Below, piece after piece: positions 18,909 to 24,796 of a DNA stretch of 64,000 bases (its first letter is position 1; each line of letters begins with the position of its first letter). A program made the translations under genes and the position numbers. The stretch is from contig CAVUPH010000020.1 in NCBI GenBank assembly GCA_963743305.1, positions 64,001 to 128,000 on the forward strand, read 5' to 3'. The stretch comes from an uncultured delta proteobacterium (GTDB lineage: Bacteria > Desulfobacterota > RBG-13-43-22). Under the pieces are notes generated by a model. It was not told the origin of the DNA. It worked only from the letters and a program-made list of their open reading frames with translations, and did no database searches.

Positions 18909-21395
18909 TTATTCCGGTGTTAGACTTTTCGGGTTATTGGTCTTCCGGAAATCGTCATATTTCCAAGTCGGGCTCTGAAGCGGCAGGGTGTCCTTAAAAT
19001 AGTCTCCGGCCGGACGGCGGAAGGGTTCCAGGACCTGGCTGTTCAGTTCCGCCGTTTCTTCAAACAGGGACTTGGGCGTGGAAAATTCAATGATGTTATT
19101 GTCATCCGTATTGAGCGGGCCTTTCTGCGTCAGCACGGCAATTTCCCGGGGACCCATCACGAAACGACCCAGGAGGGTTTTCAATTCCGTAACCTCGATA
19201 CGTTTCAGGTCCTGGGCCACTTTGGGCCATTGCATTCGTTTTTCGATCTCCGCCGGAGAAAAAACGGGAGGGGTTTTGAAACCCACCAGGACCAGATCTT
19301 TGTCCTGAGGCTGGAAAACGTAGACGTGGGGAAAAACGGCGCGAAAGGTCCGCAAAACGGTTTTAAAGCTTTCCGGAGAAATTTTATACAACTGCAGCCA
19401 CTGGCAGAAAACGCCTTCCGGTTTAAGCTTGTCGAAGCCAAGCTGAAAGAATTCACGGGTGAAGACATTGGCGATACCGGCCATCCAGGGGTTGGAAGGT
19501 TCGGAAATGATCACGTCATAAAAATCAGGGGTTACTAAGAGGTAGTTGCGGGCATCAGCCACCCGCAAGACCATCCGCGGGTCTTCCAGGGGCCGGTAGT
19601 TGACGTGGTCGAAGAAATGGGACCCTTCGATAACCGCCTGTTCCAGTTCCACCAGGGTAATTTTTTTCGCGGGGAAGGTAGTCACGGATCCGATCGTCAC
19701 CCCGCTGCCCATGCCGACTACCAGGATTTCATCCAATTTGGGCGCCAGCAGCAGCGGAATGTGGCCCACCAGCACCTGAGTAGGCATGTCCCCCTTGGTC
19801 GAGGCCTCCACTTTGCCGTTGGACTTCATGTAAATGGTTCCGGTGTACTTGGACTTATGGACGCTGATGGTGCAGGTTTGCCCTTCTTTATAATATAAGA
19901 GGGGTTCGTTTTGGGGGGAATACATGGCCACGAGGTCGGACCGGGAGGTGTTTTCAAAATTATGGGCATAGATATAGACGCCGCTGGCCATCAGGGGCGC
20001 TTTCCATTCGGGTGGAAAGGCCATGATGGCGGCCGCGAAAAGAATGGTCAGCGAATAAGCTGCTCTTTTCAAATAGGGGCGCGGGGCCGGGGAGATCAAG
20101 AGGACGTATAGGCCGTAGAGCAGATTCAGACCGATGCCCAACAGGATGGTGTTGCGGATACCGATCAGCGGGATCAGGAAGAAGCCGCCGGCAAAGGACC
20201 CCAAAATGCAGCCGAGGGTATTGATAGTATAAATATTGCCCACTAGACGGCCCACCTGGTTGAGATGAGACATGCAGATCTTGATGGTCAGGGGGAAGAG
20301 GGCGCCCATTAAAAGGGTAGGGGCCAACATGATAAAAAAAGCCAGCAGGTACTTCCCGAGCAAAAGCAAATTGATGGACTGCCCGATGGTCTGGTAAAGC
20401 AATAAGTAGAGGTAGGGGAGCTCCTGAAAAAAAATCAGGCTCAGGAAGGCCAGGACCCCGATTCCGATTTGCATCAGGGCCCAGGTAAATCCCTGGTAAC
20501 GAAAGGTATCCACCCACCGGGAAAAAATCAGAGACCCGAAGGCGATGCCGACCAGGAAAGTGGTCAGCATGATGGTAAAACCGTAAACCGAAGAATCCAC
20601 CAGCAGAGACAGGGTCCGGCTCCAGGCCACTTCGTAGATCATGGAGATAAATCCGGATAGGGAGATCCCGATGACGATGGACCAGACCACCTTTTTGGGC
20701 AGTAGGCCCGAAGTGGCTTCCAGAAATTTCCCGGCGGGTTTTGGCCCCGGAGATTCCGCCACCATCGGGCGCTCAGGAAACCGGGGCAACAAGGCGAGGA
20801 TCAGCAGGGCGACCAGCAGGTTGATGCCTACGGCGATCCACAAGGTGTGTTGGACCCCCAGAGCGGGCAACAGGAAAAAACCGCTGAGGGCGGTGCCTAA
20901 CACGGCCCCGAAGGTGTTCAAGGCGTAAAGACGGCCGATGGTCACCCCCAGGGTGGTTTCTTCCCGGACGGCCCAGGTGCTCAGGATGGGCAAGGTGGCG
21001 CCCATGCAGGTGGTGGGAATGATCAGGACCACGGTAATCAGCAGGAATTGCAGGAGGGTGAAGCTGTAGAAATTCAAATTAAATTGCTGCCAGAGAAATT
21101 GGTATACCGGAATCAGTCTGCCGAAGATCCAGGGGATGATCAGGGCGTAAAGACCGATAACCCCTTCCAGTATCCCGTAATAAAGGAGGGGGCGTTTTTG
21201 ACGATCCATCATCCGGCCGAAAAAGTAGCTGCCCAGGGCCAGGCCGCCCATAAAGGCCGTCAAGACCGTGCTGATGGCCAGGGTAGTGGAGCCGAAGATG
21301 AGGATCAGCAGGCGCAGCCATAAGACTTCATACAGCAACCCGCTGAAACCGGAGAAAAAAAAGCACAATAGGACGATGGGACGGATCAAAGTCAT
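18909..21395 (-). CDS. Fused membrane (MFS-like) / spermidine synthase family protein
   Basis: SGLLYEVLW.R, MGATLP repeats, many TM helices; C-terminal VVGMGSGVT, VELE, DARNYL, DVIISEPSNPW; start taken at MTLIRP with AAGGAG RBS. Confidence 0.9.
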   Translation of the reverse strand: MTLIRPIVLLCFFFSGFSGLLYEVLWLRLLILIFGSTTLAISTVLTAFMGGLALGSYFFGRMMDRQKRPLLYYGILEGVIGLYALIIPWIFGRLIPVYQFLWQQFNLNFYSFTLLQFLLITVVLIIPTTCMGATLPILSTWAVREETTLGVTIGRLYALNTFGAVLGTALSGFFLLPALGVQHTLWIAVGINLLVALLILALLPRFPERPMVAESPGPKPAGKFLEATSGLLPKKVVWSIVIGISLSGFISMIYEVAWSRTLSLLVDSSVYGFTIMLTTFLVGIAFGSLIFSRWVDTFRYQGFTWALMQIGIGVLAFLSLIFFQELPYLYLLLYQTIGQSINLLLLGKYLLAFFIMLAPTLLMGALFPLTIKICMSHLNQVGRLVGNIYTINTLGCILGSFAGGFFLIPLIGIRNTILLGIGLNLLYGLYVLLISPAPRPYLKRAAYSLTILFAAAIMAFPPEWKAPLMASGVYIYAHNFENTSRSDLVAMYSPQNEPLLYYKEGQTCTISVHKSKYTGTIYMKSNGKVEASTKGDMPTQVLVGHIPLLLAPKLDEILVVGMGSGVTIGSVTTFPAKKITLVELEQAVIEGSHFFDHVNYRPLEDPRMVLRVADARNYLLVTPDFYDVIISEPSNPWMAGIANVFTREFFQLGFDKLKPEGVFCQWLQLYKISPESFKTVLRTFRAVFPHVYVFQPQDKDLVLVGFKTPPVFSPAEIEKRMQWPKVAQDLKRIEVTELKTLLGRFVMGPREIAVLTQKGPLNTDDNNIIEFSTPKSLFEETAELNSQVLEPFRRPAGDYFKDTLPLQSPTWKYDDFRKTNNPKSLTPE

Positions 21396-21431
21396 TCTCC
21401 TTTGGTTGTTTCGGAAAAAGTCACCCCGGCT

Positions 21432-21512
21432 GTCATTGCGAGCGAAGCGAAGCAATCCCCGCCATGGGAACTAGCCGATTATTGGGGATTGCTTCGCTTC
21501 GCTCGCAATGAC
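21432..21512. repeat. Repeat family B, copy 2
   Basis: Same inverted-repeat arms as 17548-17642 with a different spacer. Confidence 0.9.
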
Positions 21513-21588
21513 GGTACCGACGATTTTGGTATTTAATCCTAACAGATGAAGATTGCAAGAAGAAACTGCCTTGGGTTACAATAGCCCC

Positions 21589-22017
21589 ATGACTTTCAGC
21601 CGGAAGCCCTATCGCTTAATCAGCCATACCGGGGACCTGGGGATGACCGTTCAAGGTAAAGACCGGACTGATCTTTTCGAGCAGTCGGCCTGGGCTTTCT
21701 TTGACCTCCTGGTGGACGTCCGGAAGGTTGAACCGAAAAAACCGCTGGAGGTCTCGGTCGAGGCGCCGGATCGCGAGGCCCTGCTGGTGGCCTGGCTGGG
21801 AGAACTATTGTATTTATTCGACGCCCGCCGTCTGGTTTTCAGCCGTTTTGAAATCGAAGAGCTGACCGATCGGTCGCTGAAGGCCCGGGCTTGGGGGGAG
21901 GATTTCGATCCGGAACGGCATGGGTTCAAACACGGGGTGAAGGCCGTAACTTATCACCAACTGCAGATTCGGGAAACCCCGAAAGGCTGGCGGGCCAGGG
22001 TGATTTTGGATATATAG
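21589..22017 (+). CDS. Archease
   Basis: HTGD N-terminal motif, LLVAWLGELLY, VKAVTYH, C-terminal VILDI; directly upstream of rtcB. Confidence 0.93.
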   Translation: MTFSRKPYRLISHTGDLGMTVQGKDRTDLFEQSAWAFFDLLVDVRKVEPKKPLEVSVEAPDREALLVAWLGELLYLFDARRLVFSRFEIEELTDRSLKARAWGEDFDPERHGFKHGVKAVTYHQLQIRETPKGWRARVILDI

Positions 22018-22170
22018 GTGAAATGTAAAAATAAAAACGAATATCGAATATCGAACACCGAATATCGAATGACGAAGTGGTTTTTCGTAGAGGTTAAACC
22101 AGGGCAAACATTTTCCGGATATCCATTCTAGGTAGTCCGGATAGCGGGTACCTGAAAAAGGGGGAGAGTT

Positions 22171-23619
22171 ATGGCTGATAAAATCAAGATGGAACAAATC
22201 GATCCTTATCGATTTCGAATCCCCCGGGAGGGGAAGATGCGGACCGACGGCCTGGTTTTTACTTCTTCGGAATTGTTGCCGGATATCCGGCAGGACCAGA
22301 GTCTGAACCAAGTGGCCAATGTGGCCTGGCTGCCGGGGATTGTGGGGAATTCCCTGGCCATGCCGGACATCCACTGGGGGTACGGGTTTCCCATCGGCGG
22401 AGTTGCGGCCTTTGACCCTGCGGAGGGGATCGTTTCCCCCGGCGGGGTGGGCTATGATATCAACTGAGGCGTGCGTCTGCTGCGCTCCGGGTTGAGCCGC
22501 CGGGACATTCAAGGAAAAATGAAGGAAATCGTGGACGCCCTGTTCCGCAACATCCCTTCCGGGGTGGGGTCCCACCGCAAGGATTTTAAACTTACTCCGA
22601 AAGACCAGGAAAAGGTCCTTCAGCAGGGGGCTCCATGGGCCGTTCGGCAGGGCTACGGATCGGTCAAGGACCTGGAACATATTGAAGAGGCCGGGTGCAT
22701 CGAAGGGGCCCGGCCGGACCTTGTTTCCAACAGGGCGTTGGAAAGGGGGAAGGACCAGTTAGGGACCCTGGGATCGGGGAATCATTTTGTGGAAGTGGGC
22801 TACGTGGAAACGATTTATGAACCGGCGGCGGCCCGGGCTCTGGGGCTTTTTGAAGAACAGGTGACGGTGATGGTCCATACCGGCTCCCGGGGGTTGGGCC
22901 ATCAAGTCTGCGACGATTCCATCAAACAGCTTATCCGGGCCACGGCCAAGTATGCCATCGAGCTCCCGGACCGGCAATTATGCTGCGCCCCTATCAACTC
23001 CCCGGAAGGGCAGGACTATCTGGGGGCCATGGCGGCGGCCGCCAATTTCGCCTTTGCCAACCGGCAGATCATTACCCACTGGGTCCAGGAAACCCTGGAG
23101 CGGGTTTTGCGATGCGGGCCCAATGATCTTCGATTGGAATTGGTTTATGACCTGTGCCATAACATTGCCAAGTTTGAAGATCACTTGGTTGAAGGGAAAA
23201 TGAGACGGCTGTGCGTCCACCGCAAGGGAGCTACCCGGGCCTTTCCACCCCGGCATCCCCAGATCCCTCCCGATTTTTTTGAACTGGGACAGCCGGTGAT
23301 CATCCCCGGGGATATGGGTCGTTACTCCTATGTGCTGTTGGGGACCGAGCAGGCCTATACCGAGACCTTCGGCAGTACCTGCCACGGCGCCGGACGGGTC
23401 ATGAGCCGCCAGGCCGCCAAAAAGGCCGCCCGGGGCCGTGCGGTACTTCGGGAGTTGGAGGACCGGGGGATCATTGTCCGGGGAGCCGGCCTGGGGACCG
23501 TGGTGGAAGAGATCTCCGAGGCCTACAAGGACGTGGCCCAGGTGGTGGAGGTGGTCCATGGCGCCGGGATTTCTAAAAAGGTGGCGCGGTTAAGGCCCAT
23601 GGGGGTGGTGAAGGGCTAA
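22171..23619 (+). CDS. rtcB: RtcB RNA ligase (archaeal/eukaryote-like long form) with in-frame TGA at the catalytic Cys; probable selenoprotein, 482 aa
   Basis: ORFs 22171-22467 and 22471-23619 are in the same frame; [15 protein letters not shown]...GVGYDIN[TGA][41 protein letters not shown] all present. Confidence 0.92.
22475..22506 (+). promoter_or_regulatory. Candidate bacterial SECIS element
   Basis: Hand-folded stem (GUCU/GGAC, GC/GC, GCUC/GAGC) with apical loop CGGGUU starting 20 nt after the UGA. Confidence 0.5.
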
Positions 23620-23951
23620 GCAATAACGTTTTGTTCGCAAATTTCGTCGAGCCGGGCGTTAATGCTCTTGCGTTCTCTCTTGGCCGCCAGGGCGATGGCC
23701 CAATGCAGCTCGGAAGGAACCCGCACCATGAACCGACCGGAGAAAGGCTTTTCCGGCTCTCGCCCGATCCTCCTGCAGGTTTTTAGGTATTCGTCAACGG
23801 CGGTCCGAAAATCTTCTTCTAAATCCCCAACCGAGGCCCCCTCAAAAGTAATCATATCCGTGATTCCCATGAGCCGACCATGAAAAATACGGTCATCGGA
23901 ATCAAATATCACCGTTCCAGTGTATCCCTTGTATTTCAAGGTATTTTTCAT
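23616..23951 (-). CDS. HicB-like antitoxin (orphan)
   Basis: LKYKGYTG...IFHGR...ITFEG...FRTAVDEYL..C...PEKPFSGRFMVRV..ELH (partial RNase H plus RHH); GGAGG RBS; no hicA upstream. Confidence 0.85.
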   Translation of the reverse strand: MKNTLKYKGYTGTVIFDSDDRIFHGRLMGITDMITFEGASVGDLEEDFRTAVDEYLKTCRRIGREPEKPFSGRFMVRVPSELHWAIALAAKRERKSINARLDEICEQNVIA

Positions 23952-24209: not shown

Positions 24210-24404
24210 ATGAGAACGAATGTAGTCGTAGATGACGATCTGATGGAGTCGGCTCTCAAGGTATCCGGCCTCAAAACAAAAAAGGATGCCATAGAAGAGG
24301 GATTGAAACTGTTGGTGCAAGTTAAACGCCAGAAGGAAATTAAGCGTTTTCGAGGAAAACTCAAATGGTCTGGCAATCTCGACGAGATGAGGTTAGACAA
24401 ATGA
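24210..24404 (+). CDS. vapB: VapB-family antitoxin
   Basis: MRTNVVVDDDLM..AL..SGLKTKK..IEEGL...W.GNLDEMR; ATGA overlap with the PIN gene. Confidence 0.9.
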   Translation: MRTNVVVDDDLMESALKVSGLKTKKDAIEEGLKLLVQVKRQKEIKRFRGKLKWSGNLDEMRLDK

Positions 24405-24796
24405 TTCTCGTTGATTCGTCCGTCTGGATCGACTACTTTAACGGCAATAAAACATCTCAAACGGACTGGCTGGACTCTTCACTTGGAAATATACCCATCA
24501 TCATAAATGATCTTATTCTAACCGAAGTCCTTCAGGGATTTCAGAATGATAAAGACTTCAAGACAGCCAGGGACATTCTCTTAGGAATCCCATTTATGTC
24601 AATGGGAGGACAGGTATTAGCCATAGAGAGCGCTATGAACTATAGATTCCTGAGGAAGAAAGGTGTGACCGTGAGGAAGACGATAGACGTCATTATTGGA
24701 ACTTTCTGTATCCACCACCGGCTGACATTGTTGCATGACGACAGGGATTTTGATCCGATAGTTAAGTTCCTAGGTTTGGAGATAGTCGACACATAA
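24401..24796 (+). CDS. vapC: VapC-family PIN domain ribonuclease toxin
   Basis: MILVDSSVWID, TEVLQG, KTIDVIIG, LLHDDRDF acidic PIN residues. Confidence 0.92.
   Translation: MILVDSSVWIDYFNGNKTSQTDWLDSSLGNIPIIINDLILTEVLQGFQNDKDFKTARDILLGIPFMSMGGQVLAIESAMNYRFLRKKGVTVRKTIDVIIGTFCIHHRLTLLHDDRDFDPIVKFLGLEIVDT

Follow-up and report, generated by a model that had tools for sequence, protein, structure and literature searches.

The enzymes closest to the one described here are the RtcB RNA ligases (PF01139; PH1602, TTHA1785, E. coli RtcB and human RTCB). The accessible text of PMC9745838 assigns roles to the metal ligands and the nucleophile of the Pyrococcus horikoshii enzyme and describes one cysteine as bridging the two metal ions, M1 and M2, with its alanine mutant dead at all steps. 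That source and PMC12263435, in the portions available, term this cysteine conserved or 'invariant' and sensitive to oxidation: oxidants and copper inactivate RtcB through it, one crystal structure shows it oxidized to sulfonic acid, and in human RTCB metal-induced oxidative inactivation acts on this residue. An operon of archease and rtcB is likewise described in the accessible part of PMC3973293.

Selenocysteine (Sec) has been placed at the position of the bridging cysteine by engineering; the P. horikoshii U98 enzyme of Haruna et al. (2014, PMC4150793) acquires it at a UAG codon read by an EF-Tu-dependent system that uses no SECIS element, and backbone cleavage was reported for this protein. 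Among natural enzymes, the formate dehydrogenase alpha subunit (Mo/W-Se) and the [NiFeSe] hydrogenases (Ni-Se) use Sec in place of a cysteine that ligates the catalytic metal, and their Sec and Cys forms coexist among relatives; the benefit proposed for metal-binding Sec, according to the available text of PMC13188914, is protection from irreversible over-oxidation. A special tRNA and elongation factor pair, selC*/selB*, is described in Syntrophobacterales and Desulfobacterales, with both GCA and UCA anticodon forms, in the accessible part of Mukai et al. (2017, PMC5389517).

We analyzed a 64,000-nucleotide stretch of DNA from an uncultured member of the Desulfobacterota (hereafter, the window), which contains an rtcB gene with exactly one internal stop in the plus-strand frame 22171-23619, a TGA at 22465-22467 (Table 1). 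In the list of open reading frames the gene appears as two pieces, 22171-22467 (98 aa) and 22471-23619 (382 aa); the original prediction had joined them into one frame of 482 aa, and both the stop scan and the Pfam search agree with it. We found the 482-aa read-through product matches the RtcB model over its full length (PF01139, residues 47-482 against positions 1-426 of 426, E = 4.9e-176), with a score of 586.6 bits relative to a cut-off of 27. Its closest solved structures are T. thermophilus TTHA1785 (2epg, E = 7.3e-189), with about 60% identity as estimated by eye from the alignment, and P. horikoshii RtcB (E = 4.9e-171), and its PDB relatives span E = 7e-189 to 5e-140. This gene is the sole RtcB match of the genome at E ≤ 1e-30.

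Table 1. Features of the rtcB locus, given in window coordinates.
Feature	Position	Strand	Description
Archease gene	21553-22017	+	154-aa ORF, true start may be further in; Pfam PF01951, E = 3.9e-45, residues 20-154 against model positions 1-136 of 136
rtcB	22171-23619	+	482 codons plus TAA stop, read through one UGA
Asp96 codon (GYDIN)	22456-22458	+	M2 ligand Asp95 of P. horikoshii RtcB, by motif and alignment
UGA codon 99, proposed selenocysteine	22465-22467	+	Equivalent to Cys98 (P. horikoshii), Cys78 (E. coli) and Cys122 (human), bridging M1 and M2
Core of the proposed SECIS hairpin	22482-22500	+	5' arm GCGCUC, 22482-22487; loop CGGGUU, 22488-22493; 3' arm GAGC-C-GC, 22494-22500, with one bulged C
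His205 codon (GNHF)	22783-22785	+	M2 ligand His203 of P. horikoshii RtcB, by motif and alignment
His236 codon (HTGSRG)	22876-22878	+	M1 ligand His234 of P. horikoshii RtcB, by motif and alignment
His330 codon (CHN)	23158-23160	+	M1 ligand His329 of P. horikoshii RtcB, by motif and alignment
His405 codon (CHGAGR)	23383-23385	+	His404 of P. horikoshii RtcB, the guanylylated nucleophile, by motif and alignment

All of the other catalytic motifs that had been listed as intact were located in the read-through product, including HRKGA at residue 350. The equation of the UGA with the metal-bridging Cys98 of P. horikoshii was confirmed by the phmmer alignment to the PDB chain (1uc2/4dwq), with the offset between residue 99 and Cys98 worked out by hand. 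The protein thus resembles known RtcB in its full-length match, its Asp and three His ligands, its counterpart of the guanylylated His and the archease encoded upstream, and it differs from them in that the metal-bridging residue is encoded by UGA instead of a cysteine codon (TGA, not TGC or TGT), with Sec, chemically the closest residue to Cys, proposed in its place. Since every other feature of the family is present, we file the gene as a variant within the RtcB family.

Archease is a known activator of RtcB guanylylation, and its gene precedes rtcB on the same strand, 153 nt away. Of the Sec-type loci, 122 include 650 nt or more of upstream sequence, and in 105 of these archease is likewise the gene directly upstream on the same strand.

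The internal TGA recurs among relatives, which had been proposed as a check with the prediction. Across 41 related genomes, the aligned codon of 30 RtcB loci is TGA in 19 and TGC or TGT in 11, and these loci have no other in-frame stop. In a sample of 401 genomes from the phylum, RtcB was found at E ≤ 1e-60 in 326; among the best 150 matches, beyond which lie 184 weaker ones, 47 have one internal stop and 103 have none, and the stop is TGA in 47 of 47 cases, never TAA or TAG. Searching one genome per species with a 29-nt degenerate pattern around the UGA gave at least 118 matches, and 118 of 118 are RtcB by tblastn. These genomes come from many assembling groups and most are MAGs; their record titles name Thermodesulfobacteriota/'Deltaproteobacteria', Nitrospirota, Acidobacteriota, Binatia, Eisenbacteria, Gemmatimonadales, Polyangiaceae and one Planctomycetota bin. 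The pairing of Cys with UGA also holds, in that cysteine codons fill the same column in the loci that lack TGA. Three database proteins that appeared to have R or K at the Cys/Sec site were rejected as exceptions, as all three have Cys.

Purifying selection is the same on both sides of the UGA, with no relaxation in the 3' half: dN/dS between the window gene and seven Sec-type relatives is 0.05-0.11 upstream of the UGA and 0.07-0.105 downstream. On a tree of 97 Sec and 124 Cys rows, parsimony gives 21 switches between Sec and Cys, and well-supported branches force at least 11. Excluded from this tree were loci that do not span residues 12-475, as well as L099, which has three extra TGAs within a short out-of-frame stretch, and L124 and L126, which match in two pieces; we read the extra stops and the two-piece matches as assembly indels. 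We also rejected the idea that Cys-type relatives have Cys owing to loss of the Sec machinery, since three of them (G010, G014 and G029) keep selA and selB.

The original prediction had placed a hairpin at 22475-22506, with its CGGGUU loop 20 nt after the UGA, and ViennaRNA folds these nucleotides into that hairpin. The core starts 14 nt past the UGA, and a weak, non-conserved lower stem extends it to the full 32 nt. Taken alone, the window hairpin is no better than chance (32 nt, -9.4 kcal/mol, z = +0.68; 23-nt core, -6.1, z = +0.11), and the minimum free energy (MFE) structure of the 61 nt from the UGA, for the window sequence alone, prefers other pairings (z = +1.33). Its significance comes only from comparison with relatives, whose hairpins are individually strong (z = -4.1 and -4.7). 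In all lineages, a hairpin lies 13-17 nt after the UGA, with compensatory changes between lineages, and the pairing is kept while the encoded peptide varies by lineage (LRSGLSR, VKTSLVFE, LRSNL...).

The 142 Sec-type loci include genomes counted twice and reduce to 131 distinct sequences, in which we found three hairpin registers (71, 19 and 18 sequences); the other 23 mostly represent variants of the three registers. The bulged register of the window, that of the 71 sequences, is 95.7% paired compared to 23-39% with the partner slid, figures that are partly circular because the sequences were sorted into registers by fit. We therefore put weight only on changes to both sides of a pair and on the slid controls. 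Kinship alone can also beat shuffles in the absence of structure. In the unbulged register (19 sequences), four of the seven pairs change on both sides (e.g. CG in 8 and AU in 9; GC in 10 and CG in 8), and covariation is 0.605; shuffles score 0.212, with none of 500 attaining the observed value, and slid partners score 0.01-0.15. Simple unbiased measures separate Sec-type sequences from controls less clearly: the MFE averages -15.4 in the Sec type, against -12.3 in shuffles and -10.8 in 18 sequences of the Cys type, and 117 of the 131 Sec-type sequences contain a perfect stem of 5 bp or more, as do 691 of 1310 shuffles. Comparison across homologues, which had been suggested with the prediction, thus finds the hairpin conserved with compensatory changes.

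Like known bacterial SECIS elements (e.g. that of E. coli fdhF), the rtcB hairpin is a coding-region stem-loop shortly after the UGA with a G early in its apical loop; loops of the Sec type include AGGUCU, CGGGUU, AGGUUU and GGUCU. Its spacing and G/U-rich loop presumably fit the bSECISearch model and the fdhF element. It differs from known elements in that no curated RNA family matches it, as an Rfam scan of 22300-22700 at E ≤ 10 returned only unrelated families at chance level and nothing at the hairpin. It also has at least three structural versions by lineage; one of them, in sequences titled mostly Nitrospirota, has a stem of 10-13 bp without a GGU loop. Some close RtcB genes with a Cys codon (L014, L015, L037, L058 and L059) retain the hairpin.

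The genome encodes a tRNA-SeC with anticodon TCA (75 bits), a complete 639-aa SelB, and a selD of the Sec type, whose motif AAG-U-ASKLG contains a UGA and whose frame is broken in the assembly by an apparent frameshift beside a G run. Two full-length fdhA genes with one UGA apiece are also present. TGA ends 482 of the 1325 long open frames of the genome; hence, since TGA also serves as an ordinary stop, the code as a whole is not reassigned. The selenocysteine genes to be looked for with the prediction were therefore found in the case of selC, selB and selD, and selA was not found with PF03841 or TIGR00474 in this bin, which is 90% complete. All five relatives searched have selA, including both genomes of the same genus, which carry Sec-type RtcB, and the 17-kb selA neighbourhood of one of these (G002) is without counterpart in the present assembly. 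Hence, the missing selA says little, as the bin is 90% complete, the assembly contains nothing matching the selA region of G002 and the same-genus genomes have the gene; it nonetheless remains a gap. SelB is present in 45 of 47 Sec-RtcB genomes compared to 375 of 401 phylum-wide, so its co-occurrence fits Sec-RtcB but does not discriminate, given that Sec is used by nearly the entire phylum.

A broken or split gene, arising by sequencing error or fresh nonsense mutation, or yielding two polypeptides (98 aa, and 382 aa from the GTG at 22471) that assemble or are useless, is hardly tenable. Public gene callers do annotate the 382-aa piece as a protein (P0005, with at least nine similar clusters of 366-382 aa), the GTG is one codon past the TGA, and the assembly contains other apparent errors, as had been cautioned, with selD and selB* frame-broken elsewhere; however, these errors are indels, and a false TGA would require a substitution. 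The same codon is TGA in at least 118 species-level genomes from many assembling groups, the stop is always on the Cys column and, among the best 150 matches, is never TAA or TAG, and dN/dS is about 0.1 in both halves. A two-piece enzyme would have no bridging ligand, and RtcB that has lost this ligand is inactive at every step (PMC9745838, accessible text); since this residue is functionally indispensable, a truncated or split product would be inactive. A weaker point on the same side is that two contigs of one public DNA run (X1) bridge 22465-22467 with no other letter among the differences listed, although 49 further differences lie beyond that list, these are contigs only and the run may be the source sample. 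In the public runs, the best share of sampled words was 0.25, and the four runs compared were all contigs; contigs from metatranscriptomes match parts of rtcB at only 85-95% likeness and so derive from relatives. The comparative data thus already contradict a broken or split gene: judged from the aligned sequences, the TGA is not an assembly error and rtcB is not a pseudogene.

Decoding of the UGA wholly or partly as cysteine, by selC*/selB* or by a Cys-loaded tRNA-Sec at low selenium, would instead give a Cys-RtcB of the usual kind, with the recoding machinery controlling how much is made. The genome does contain such a pair, in the gene order described in the accessible part of PMC5389517: contig C14, which is not that of rtcB, bears a 92-nt tRNA, which the tRNA-Sec model scores at 50.8 bits, and immediately after it a SelB-like gene (GTP_EFTU, domain 2, SelB beta-barrel and SelB winged-helix). 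In that source, selC* tRNA(Cys) with a UCA anticodon is shown to be able to suppress UGA in E. coli, but UGA reading is tied to UCA-anticodon forms with a dedicated cysS*, and ARAGORN gives the anticodon of the tRNA here as GCA, matching UGC/UGU and not UGA. The pair is relevant only as a possible alternative decoder. Its selB* frame is split into ORFs of 465 and 213 aa in this assembly; the canonical tRNA-Sec(UCA) and SelB are both present. The hairpins retained in some close Cys-codon genes favor cysteine delivery; however, if Cys were the residue wanted, UGC would encode it at lower cost, and switches between the two forms do occur among relatives (at least 11 changes on the tree). Overall, we consider cysteine decoding unlikely. 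We regard as very unlikely that Sec is inserted for regulation, such that RtcB synthesis is tied to selenium supply or SelB and selenium brings no catalytic or protective advantage. The frequent interchange on the tree and the selA and selB retained in Cys-type genomes do suggest that Sec and Cys forms are close to interchangeable, yet the recoded residue is not arbitrary: among the metal ligands of the active site it is the single oxidation-sensitive one (PMC9745838 and PMC12263435, accessible text), as in other Sec/Cys enzyme pairs, and the Sec form persists across lineages with fully diverged SECIS sequences, which argues for long-term selection to keep it.

In all likelihood, then, the product of this gene is an RtcB RNA ligase that naturally contains selenocysteine, with UGA 99 decoded via the SECIS hairpin and SelB. 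Recurrence, selection, hairpin covariation and the presence of tRNA-Sec, SelB and SelD support the Sec-RtcB interpretation of the original prediction, so the UGA is very probably read as selenocysteine; we infer both the insertion of Sec rather than Cys at position 99 and the reason for it. In the mechanism we propose, the UGA at 22465-22467 would escape termination during translation, the hairpin 14 nt downstream would serve as a bacterial SECIS element, and its recognition by SelB with Sec-tRNA(Sec, anticodon UCA) would place selenocysteine at position 99. The 482-aa enzyme would then act as an ordinary RtcB aided by the archease encoded upstream: His405 would be guanylylated by GTP, the GMP would be transferred to the RNA 3'-phosphate end, and the 5'-OH end would attack and seal the break. 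The difference would be that a selenolate, not a thiolate, is the single bridge between both catalytic metal ions.

Our preferred reason for the use of Sec is protection of the cysteine, the known weak point of RtcB, from oxidation, and the alternative is that Sec alters which metals the enzyme prefers. A selenolate remains deprotonated, and oxidized selenium is more readily reduced back; in animals, oxidation protection of RtcB is assigned to a separate protein, PYROXD1. We hold it possible, if not quite probable, that this enzyme is the first natural case of a selenolate bridging a binuclear Mn(II)-type center in non-redox nucleotidyl transfer, selected as self-protection of an oxidation-sensitive residue or as a retuning of which metals activate and poison the enzyme. 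The hairpins beside Cys codons in sister lineages, along with the selC*(GCA)/selB* pair, may mean that the same site is served by delivery of either Sec or Cys.

Sec-RtcB shares with engineered U98 the position of selenocysteine exactly, and differs from it in that the natural family uses UGA and a SECIS element and is under purifying selection; natural Sec-RtcB must avoid the backbone cleavage reported for the engineered protein (PMC4150793) or differ in context. Formate dehydrogenase and the [NiFeSe] hydrogenases are redox enzymes with Mo/W or Ni-Fe centers, whereas RtcB is a GTP-dependent nucleotidyl-transfer ligase, and its site is of a binuclear Mn(II) type in which the residue bridges two ions. 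Hence, of the proposal that selenium acts as a metal ligand in an RNA ligase, the class of enzyme and the type of metal site are new for Sec, whereas metal ligation by selenium is already known from those enzymes. The prediction that RtcB is not among the classic selenoprotein families agrees with Table 1 of the May 2026 selenoprotein review (PMC13188914), from whose 119 families and subfamilies it is absent. The accessible text of that review mentions neither RtcB/PF01139 nor ligase or splicing, and the terms of this kind searched in each of the BSepDB and deep-Sep papers are likewise absent from their main text; supplementary lists, such as those of BSepDB or of earlier surveys, could still contain RtcB. 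In the full-text literature searched, natural Sec-RtcB is not named, and only engineered U98 is in print.

Sec-RtcB is thus apparently an undescribed and widespread selenoprotein family, found in more than 100 bacterial species, and the bridging residue of RtcB would be replaced by selenocysteine in many anaerobic and soil bacteria. The gene also exposes a systematic annotation error: public gene calls truncate Sec-RtcB to 366-382 aa, and because of this truncation, surveys of RNA repair and of selenoproteomes both miss it. For the selenoprotein field, this would be a widespread family outside the usual thiol-oxidoreductase mould. For the RtcB field, it would provide a natural experiment on the bridging ligand with respect to metal choice, pKa and oxidative inactivation, since the Sec and Cys forms of RtcB would make pairs that differ by one atom and allow direct testing.

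We found that the window's rtcB gene is a single frame whose read-through product of 482 residues matches the RtcB family model PF01139 end to end (586.6 bits, model positions 1-426 of 426), with T. thermophilus TTHA1785 (E 7.3e-189) and P. horikoshii RtcB (E 4.9e-171) as the nearest solved structures. Residue 99, the TGA codon, falls on Cys98 of P. horikoshii RtcB in the printed alignment, and the remaining active-site residues are kept (D96, H205, H236, H330 and the nucleophile H405). Hence, the frame, the family match and the alignment confirm the original prediction of one rtcB frame with intact catalytic motifs and a single TGA at the metal-bridging cysteine. This is the only RtcB copy in the genome at E<=1e-30. 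According to PMC9745838, Cys98 bridges both metal ions (M1 ligands Cys98, His234 and His329; M2 ligands Cys98, Asp95 and His203), its alanine mutant has no activity at any step, and it was seen as sulfonic acid (oxidised) in one crystal; PMC12263435 terms the same residue of human RTCB, Cys122, invariant and oxidation-sensitive. The NCBIfam model for intein-containing RtcB matches the read-through protein in two stretches, the better one from residue 98 (model 578-961 of 961), and P. horikoshii Cys98 is an intein splice junction (Haruna et al., PMC4150793). Hence, the Sec site (residues 98/99, 22462-22467) is the classic RtcB intein insertion point too.

Features of the window and of other contigs (C) and extracted loci (L) of the same genome
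Feature	Location	Strand	Remarks
848-aa ORF	window 18909-21455	-	Major-facilitator transporter domain and spermidine/spermine synthase domain
Archease ORF	window 21553-22017	+	E 3.9e-45; directly upstream of rtcB, same strand
Archease-rtcB spacer	window 22018-22170		153 nt, AT-rich
Spacer motif copies	window around 22038-22070		About 3 copies of a short CGAATATCGAA-like motif (by eye)
rtcB	window 22171-23619	+	Single frame, one internal stop: TGA at 22465-22467
Candidate SECIS hairpin	window 22482-22500	+	GCGCUC / loop CGGGUU / GAGC-C-GC; weak lower stem to 22475-22506
HicB-family antitoxin-like ORF	window 23616-23951	-	Stop codon overlaps that of rtcB on the opposite strand
PIN-domain ORF	window 24365-24796	+	Just downstream of rtcB
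selC*-like tRNA	C14 ~97.3-100.8 kb (L002 1498-1589)	-	92 nt; tRNA-Sec 50.8 bits; Cys GCA anticodon
Second SelB-like gene	L002 202-1599, L010 1486-2127		Directly downstream of the selC*-like tRNA; 465-aa ORF (GTPase, domain 2, beta-barrel) and 213-aa ORF (winged-helix)
selD	C26 ~75.85-76.80 kb (L182 5746-6800)	-	In-frame TGA in AAG-U-ASKLG
Formate dehydrogenase alpha genes	C34:9616-12633, C40:27700-30708		Full length, one in-frame TGA each

The 3' half of the gene does not show relaxed selection, which had been named as a sign against selenocysteine: dN/dS between the window's rtcB and seven Sec-type relatives (TGA at the aligned codon; Cys-type genes have TGC or TGT) lies at 0.05-0.11 on the 5' side of the TGA and at 0.07-0.105 on the 3' side. 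Hence, the 383 codons past the apparent stop are translated and under selection. Genome-wide reassignment of the code was ruled out, since TGA also serves as an ordinary stop here, closing 482 of the genome's 1325 long open frames.

The TGA recurs at the same codon in relatives. RtcB was found in 35 of 41 related genomes (36 rows), and the aligned column of 30 loci extracted from such genomes holds TGA in 19, TGC or TGT in 11 and other stops in none. RtcB is also present in 326 genomes of a 401-genome phylum sample; among the best 150 RtcB rows, beyond which lie 184 weaker ones, 103 have no stop and 47 have one internal stop, TGA in 47/47. Scanning bacterial and archaeal genomes, one for each species, with a 29-nt degenerate pattern, back-translated from the 13-residue peptide at the TGA site, we found at least 118 stretches, and every listed one (118/118) lies within an RtcB gene. 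Their titles name Thermodesulfobacteriota/'Deltaproteobacteria' (Syntrophaceae, Syntrophorhabdaceae, Desulfarculaceae, Desulfobacterales and others), Nitrospirota (Thermodesulfovibrionales, Candidatus Magnetobacterium casense), Acidobacteriota (Vicinamibacterales and others), Binatia, Eisenbacteria, Gemmatimonadales, Polyangiaceae and one Planctomycetota bin, these names being submitters' MAG labels, some of which may reflect mis-binning. Three of the 118 listed Sec-type loci have local frame breaks, most simply assembly indels: L099 (a short stretch out of frame, with three additional TGAs) and L124 and L126 (two-piece matches).

The hairpin predicted as the SECIS element is present, and its support is comparative; its own folding energy is unremarkable (z +0.11 and +0.68; the MFE of a longer stretch favours other pairs) and no Rfam family matches it. 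We compared 131 distinct 63-nt stretches 3' of the TGA, sorted into registers by fit, so that the percentage paired is partly by construction. The bulged register of the window (71 sequences; loops AGGUCU in 29, CGGGUU in 15 and AGGUUU in 12) has a nearly invariant stem and therefore says little either way. The unbulged register (19 sequences; 7 bp, 5-nt loop) has compensatory changes between lineages, with 4/7 pairs altered on both sides (CG 8 / AU 9; GC 9 / AU 7; GC 10 / CG 8; AU 12 / UA 7) and a covariation score of 0.605, against 0.212 for shuffles (reached by 0/500, a test inflated by the relatedness of the sequences) and no more than 0.15 with slid partners. A long stem of 10-13 bp occurs in 18 sequences, with titles mostly from Nitrospirota, and the other 23 are mostly variants of the three named registers. 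Pairing is kept while the peptide encoded by the hairpin region varies (LRSGLSR, VKTSLVFE, LRSVLSV, LRSNL and others). The unbiased mean MFE separates the groups more mildly (Sec-type sequences average -15.4, shuffles -12.3 and a set of 18 Cys-type sequences -10.8), and distant Cys-type rtcB genes are without the hairpin. In five close Cys-type loci (L014, L015, L037, L058 and L059), the codon is TGT or TGC and a SECIS-like hairpin still stands directly behind it; these may be recent Sec-to-Cys switches, or the hairpin may be used with Cys codons.

Among the sel genes proposed as a check, those for tRNA-Sec, SelB and SelD were found in the genome, but selA was not. We found a tRNA-SeC with anticodon TCA (ARAGORN; Rfam tRNA-Sec 75.1 bits) and, on contig 4, a complete SelB of 639 aa with all domains. 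The UGA of selD lies in what we take to be the usual N-terminal loop; the gene is split into two overlapping frames beside a G run, probably by a homopolymer indel, in agreement with the earlier caution about assembly errors. Two further partial formate dehydrogenase alpha matches carry a TGA, and with several such genes the genome has a multi-member selenoproteome. Two models detected no selA in the bin, which is 90% complete; selA is present in 5/5 relatives searched, among them the two same-genus genomes that carry Sec-type RtcB, and 17 kb around selA of one same-genus genome is without counterpart in this assembly. We read its absence as probably an assembly gap, yet it leaves the sel gene set incomplete. 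In one relative with Cys-type RtcB (G014), the sole SelB winged-helix match (C30:178948-179085) lies in a 282-aa open frame, against ~640 aa elsewhere, and this SelB may be broken or mis-assembled.

SelB/SECIS-dependent selenocysteine insertion is very probably what yields full RtcB here, and the original prediction of a Sec-RtcB is supported: the UGA would be read as Sec by SelB and the SECIS, and the full-length enzyme would carry a selenolate bridging both metal ions. Insertion of cysteine instead has in its favour a tRNA-Sec-like tRNA(Cys) adjoining a second SelB-like gene in the same genome, a match to the selC*/selB* pair reported by Mukai et al. (2017; PMC5389517); because the anticodon of this selC* is GCA and not the UGA-reading UCA, we regard cysteine insertion as unlikely. 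The split of the second SelB-like gene may be an assembly indel, and the selC*(GCA)/selB* pair would be a candidate reader of the hairpin behind Cys codons. A broken or split rtcB gene is contradicted by the comparative data and is scarcely credible.

That Sec serves regulation alone, bringing no chemical benefit, would fit the frequent interconversion of Sec and Cys forms on the RtcB tree, and we hold it to be very improbable. In a FastTree of 224 proteins (97 Sec, 124 Cys and 3 unlabelled), we found at least 21 state changes, compared with 62-81 for shuffled labels, and at least 11 Sec/Cys changes are forced by well-supported branches; as the tree has no root and takes its Cys rows from the nearest database matches, it does not distinguish gains from losses. 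Hence, the two forms cluster yet switch frequently, which is also the pattern of other Sec/Cys families. The reason for selenium may be that the bridging residue is RtcB's known oxidation-sensitive point; in formate dehydrogenase and [NiFeSe] hydrogenase, according to PMC13188914, the advantage proposed for Sec is that it resists irreversible over-oxidation. A changed metal preference is the other candidate reason. A published result points in the opposite direction: backbone cleavage is reported for the engineered U98 enzyme, which natural Sec forms would have to escape or differ from in context.

The archease encoded beside rtcB is a known RtcB activator. The motif copies in the spacer between the two genes could be a candidate regulator binding site. 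The HicB-like and PIN ORFs are RNA-cleaving toxin-antitoxin-type genes adjoining an RNA-repair ligase.

No description of a natural Sec-RtcB was found in the main text of the open-access articles searched, which agrees with the earlier statement that RtcB is not among the classic selenoprotein families; the sole match on Sec in RtcB is an engineered variant, P. horikoshii RtcB U98 (Haruna et al. 2014, PMC4150793). The 119-family table of a 2026 selenoprotein review (PMC13188914) has no RtcB, and the terms ligase, splicing, Rtc and PF01139 have zero occurrences in that review and are absent from the BSepDB and deep-Sep papers as far as searched in each; the NCBIfam matches include no selenoprotein-type RtcB model. 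In public gene calls, Sec-type RtcB stands as a truncated protein of 366-382 aa annotated as tRNA-splicing ligase RtcB. This real and widespread RtcB variant appears to be an undescribed selenoprotein family, not a new kind of system, since RtcB and UGA/SECIS recoding are both well known. Sec-RtcB would overturn an 'invariant' catalytic residue and place selenium in a non-redox RNA enzyme, and it is open to immediate bench testing.
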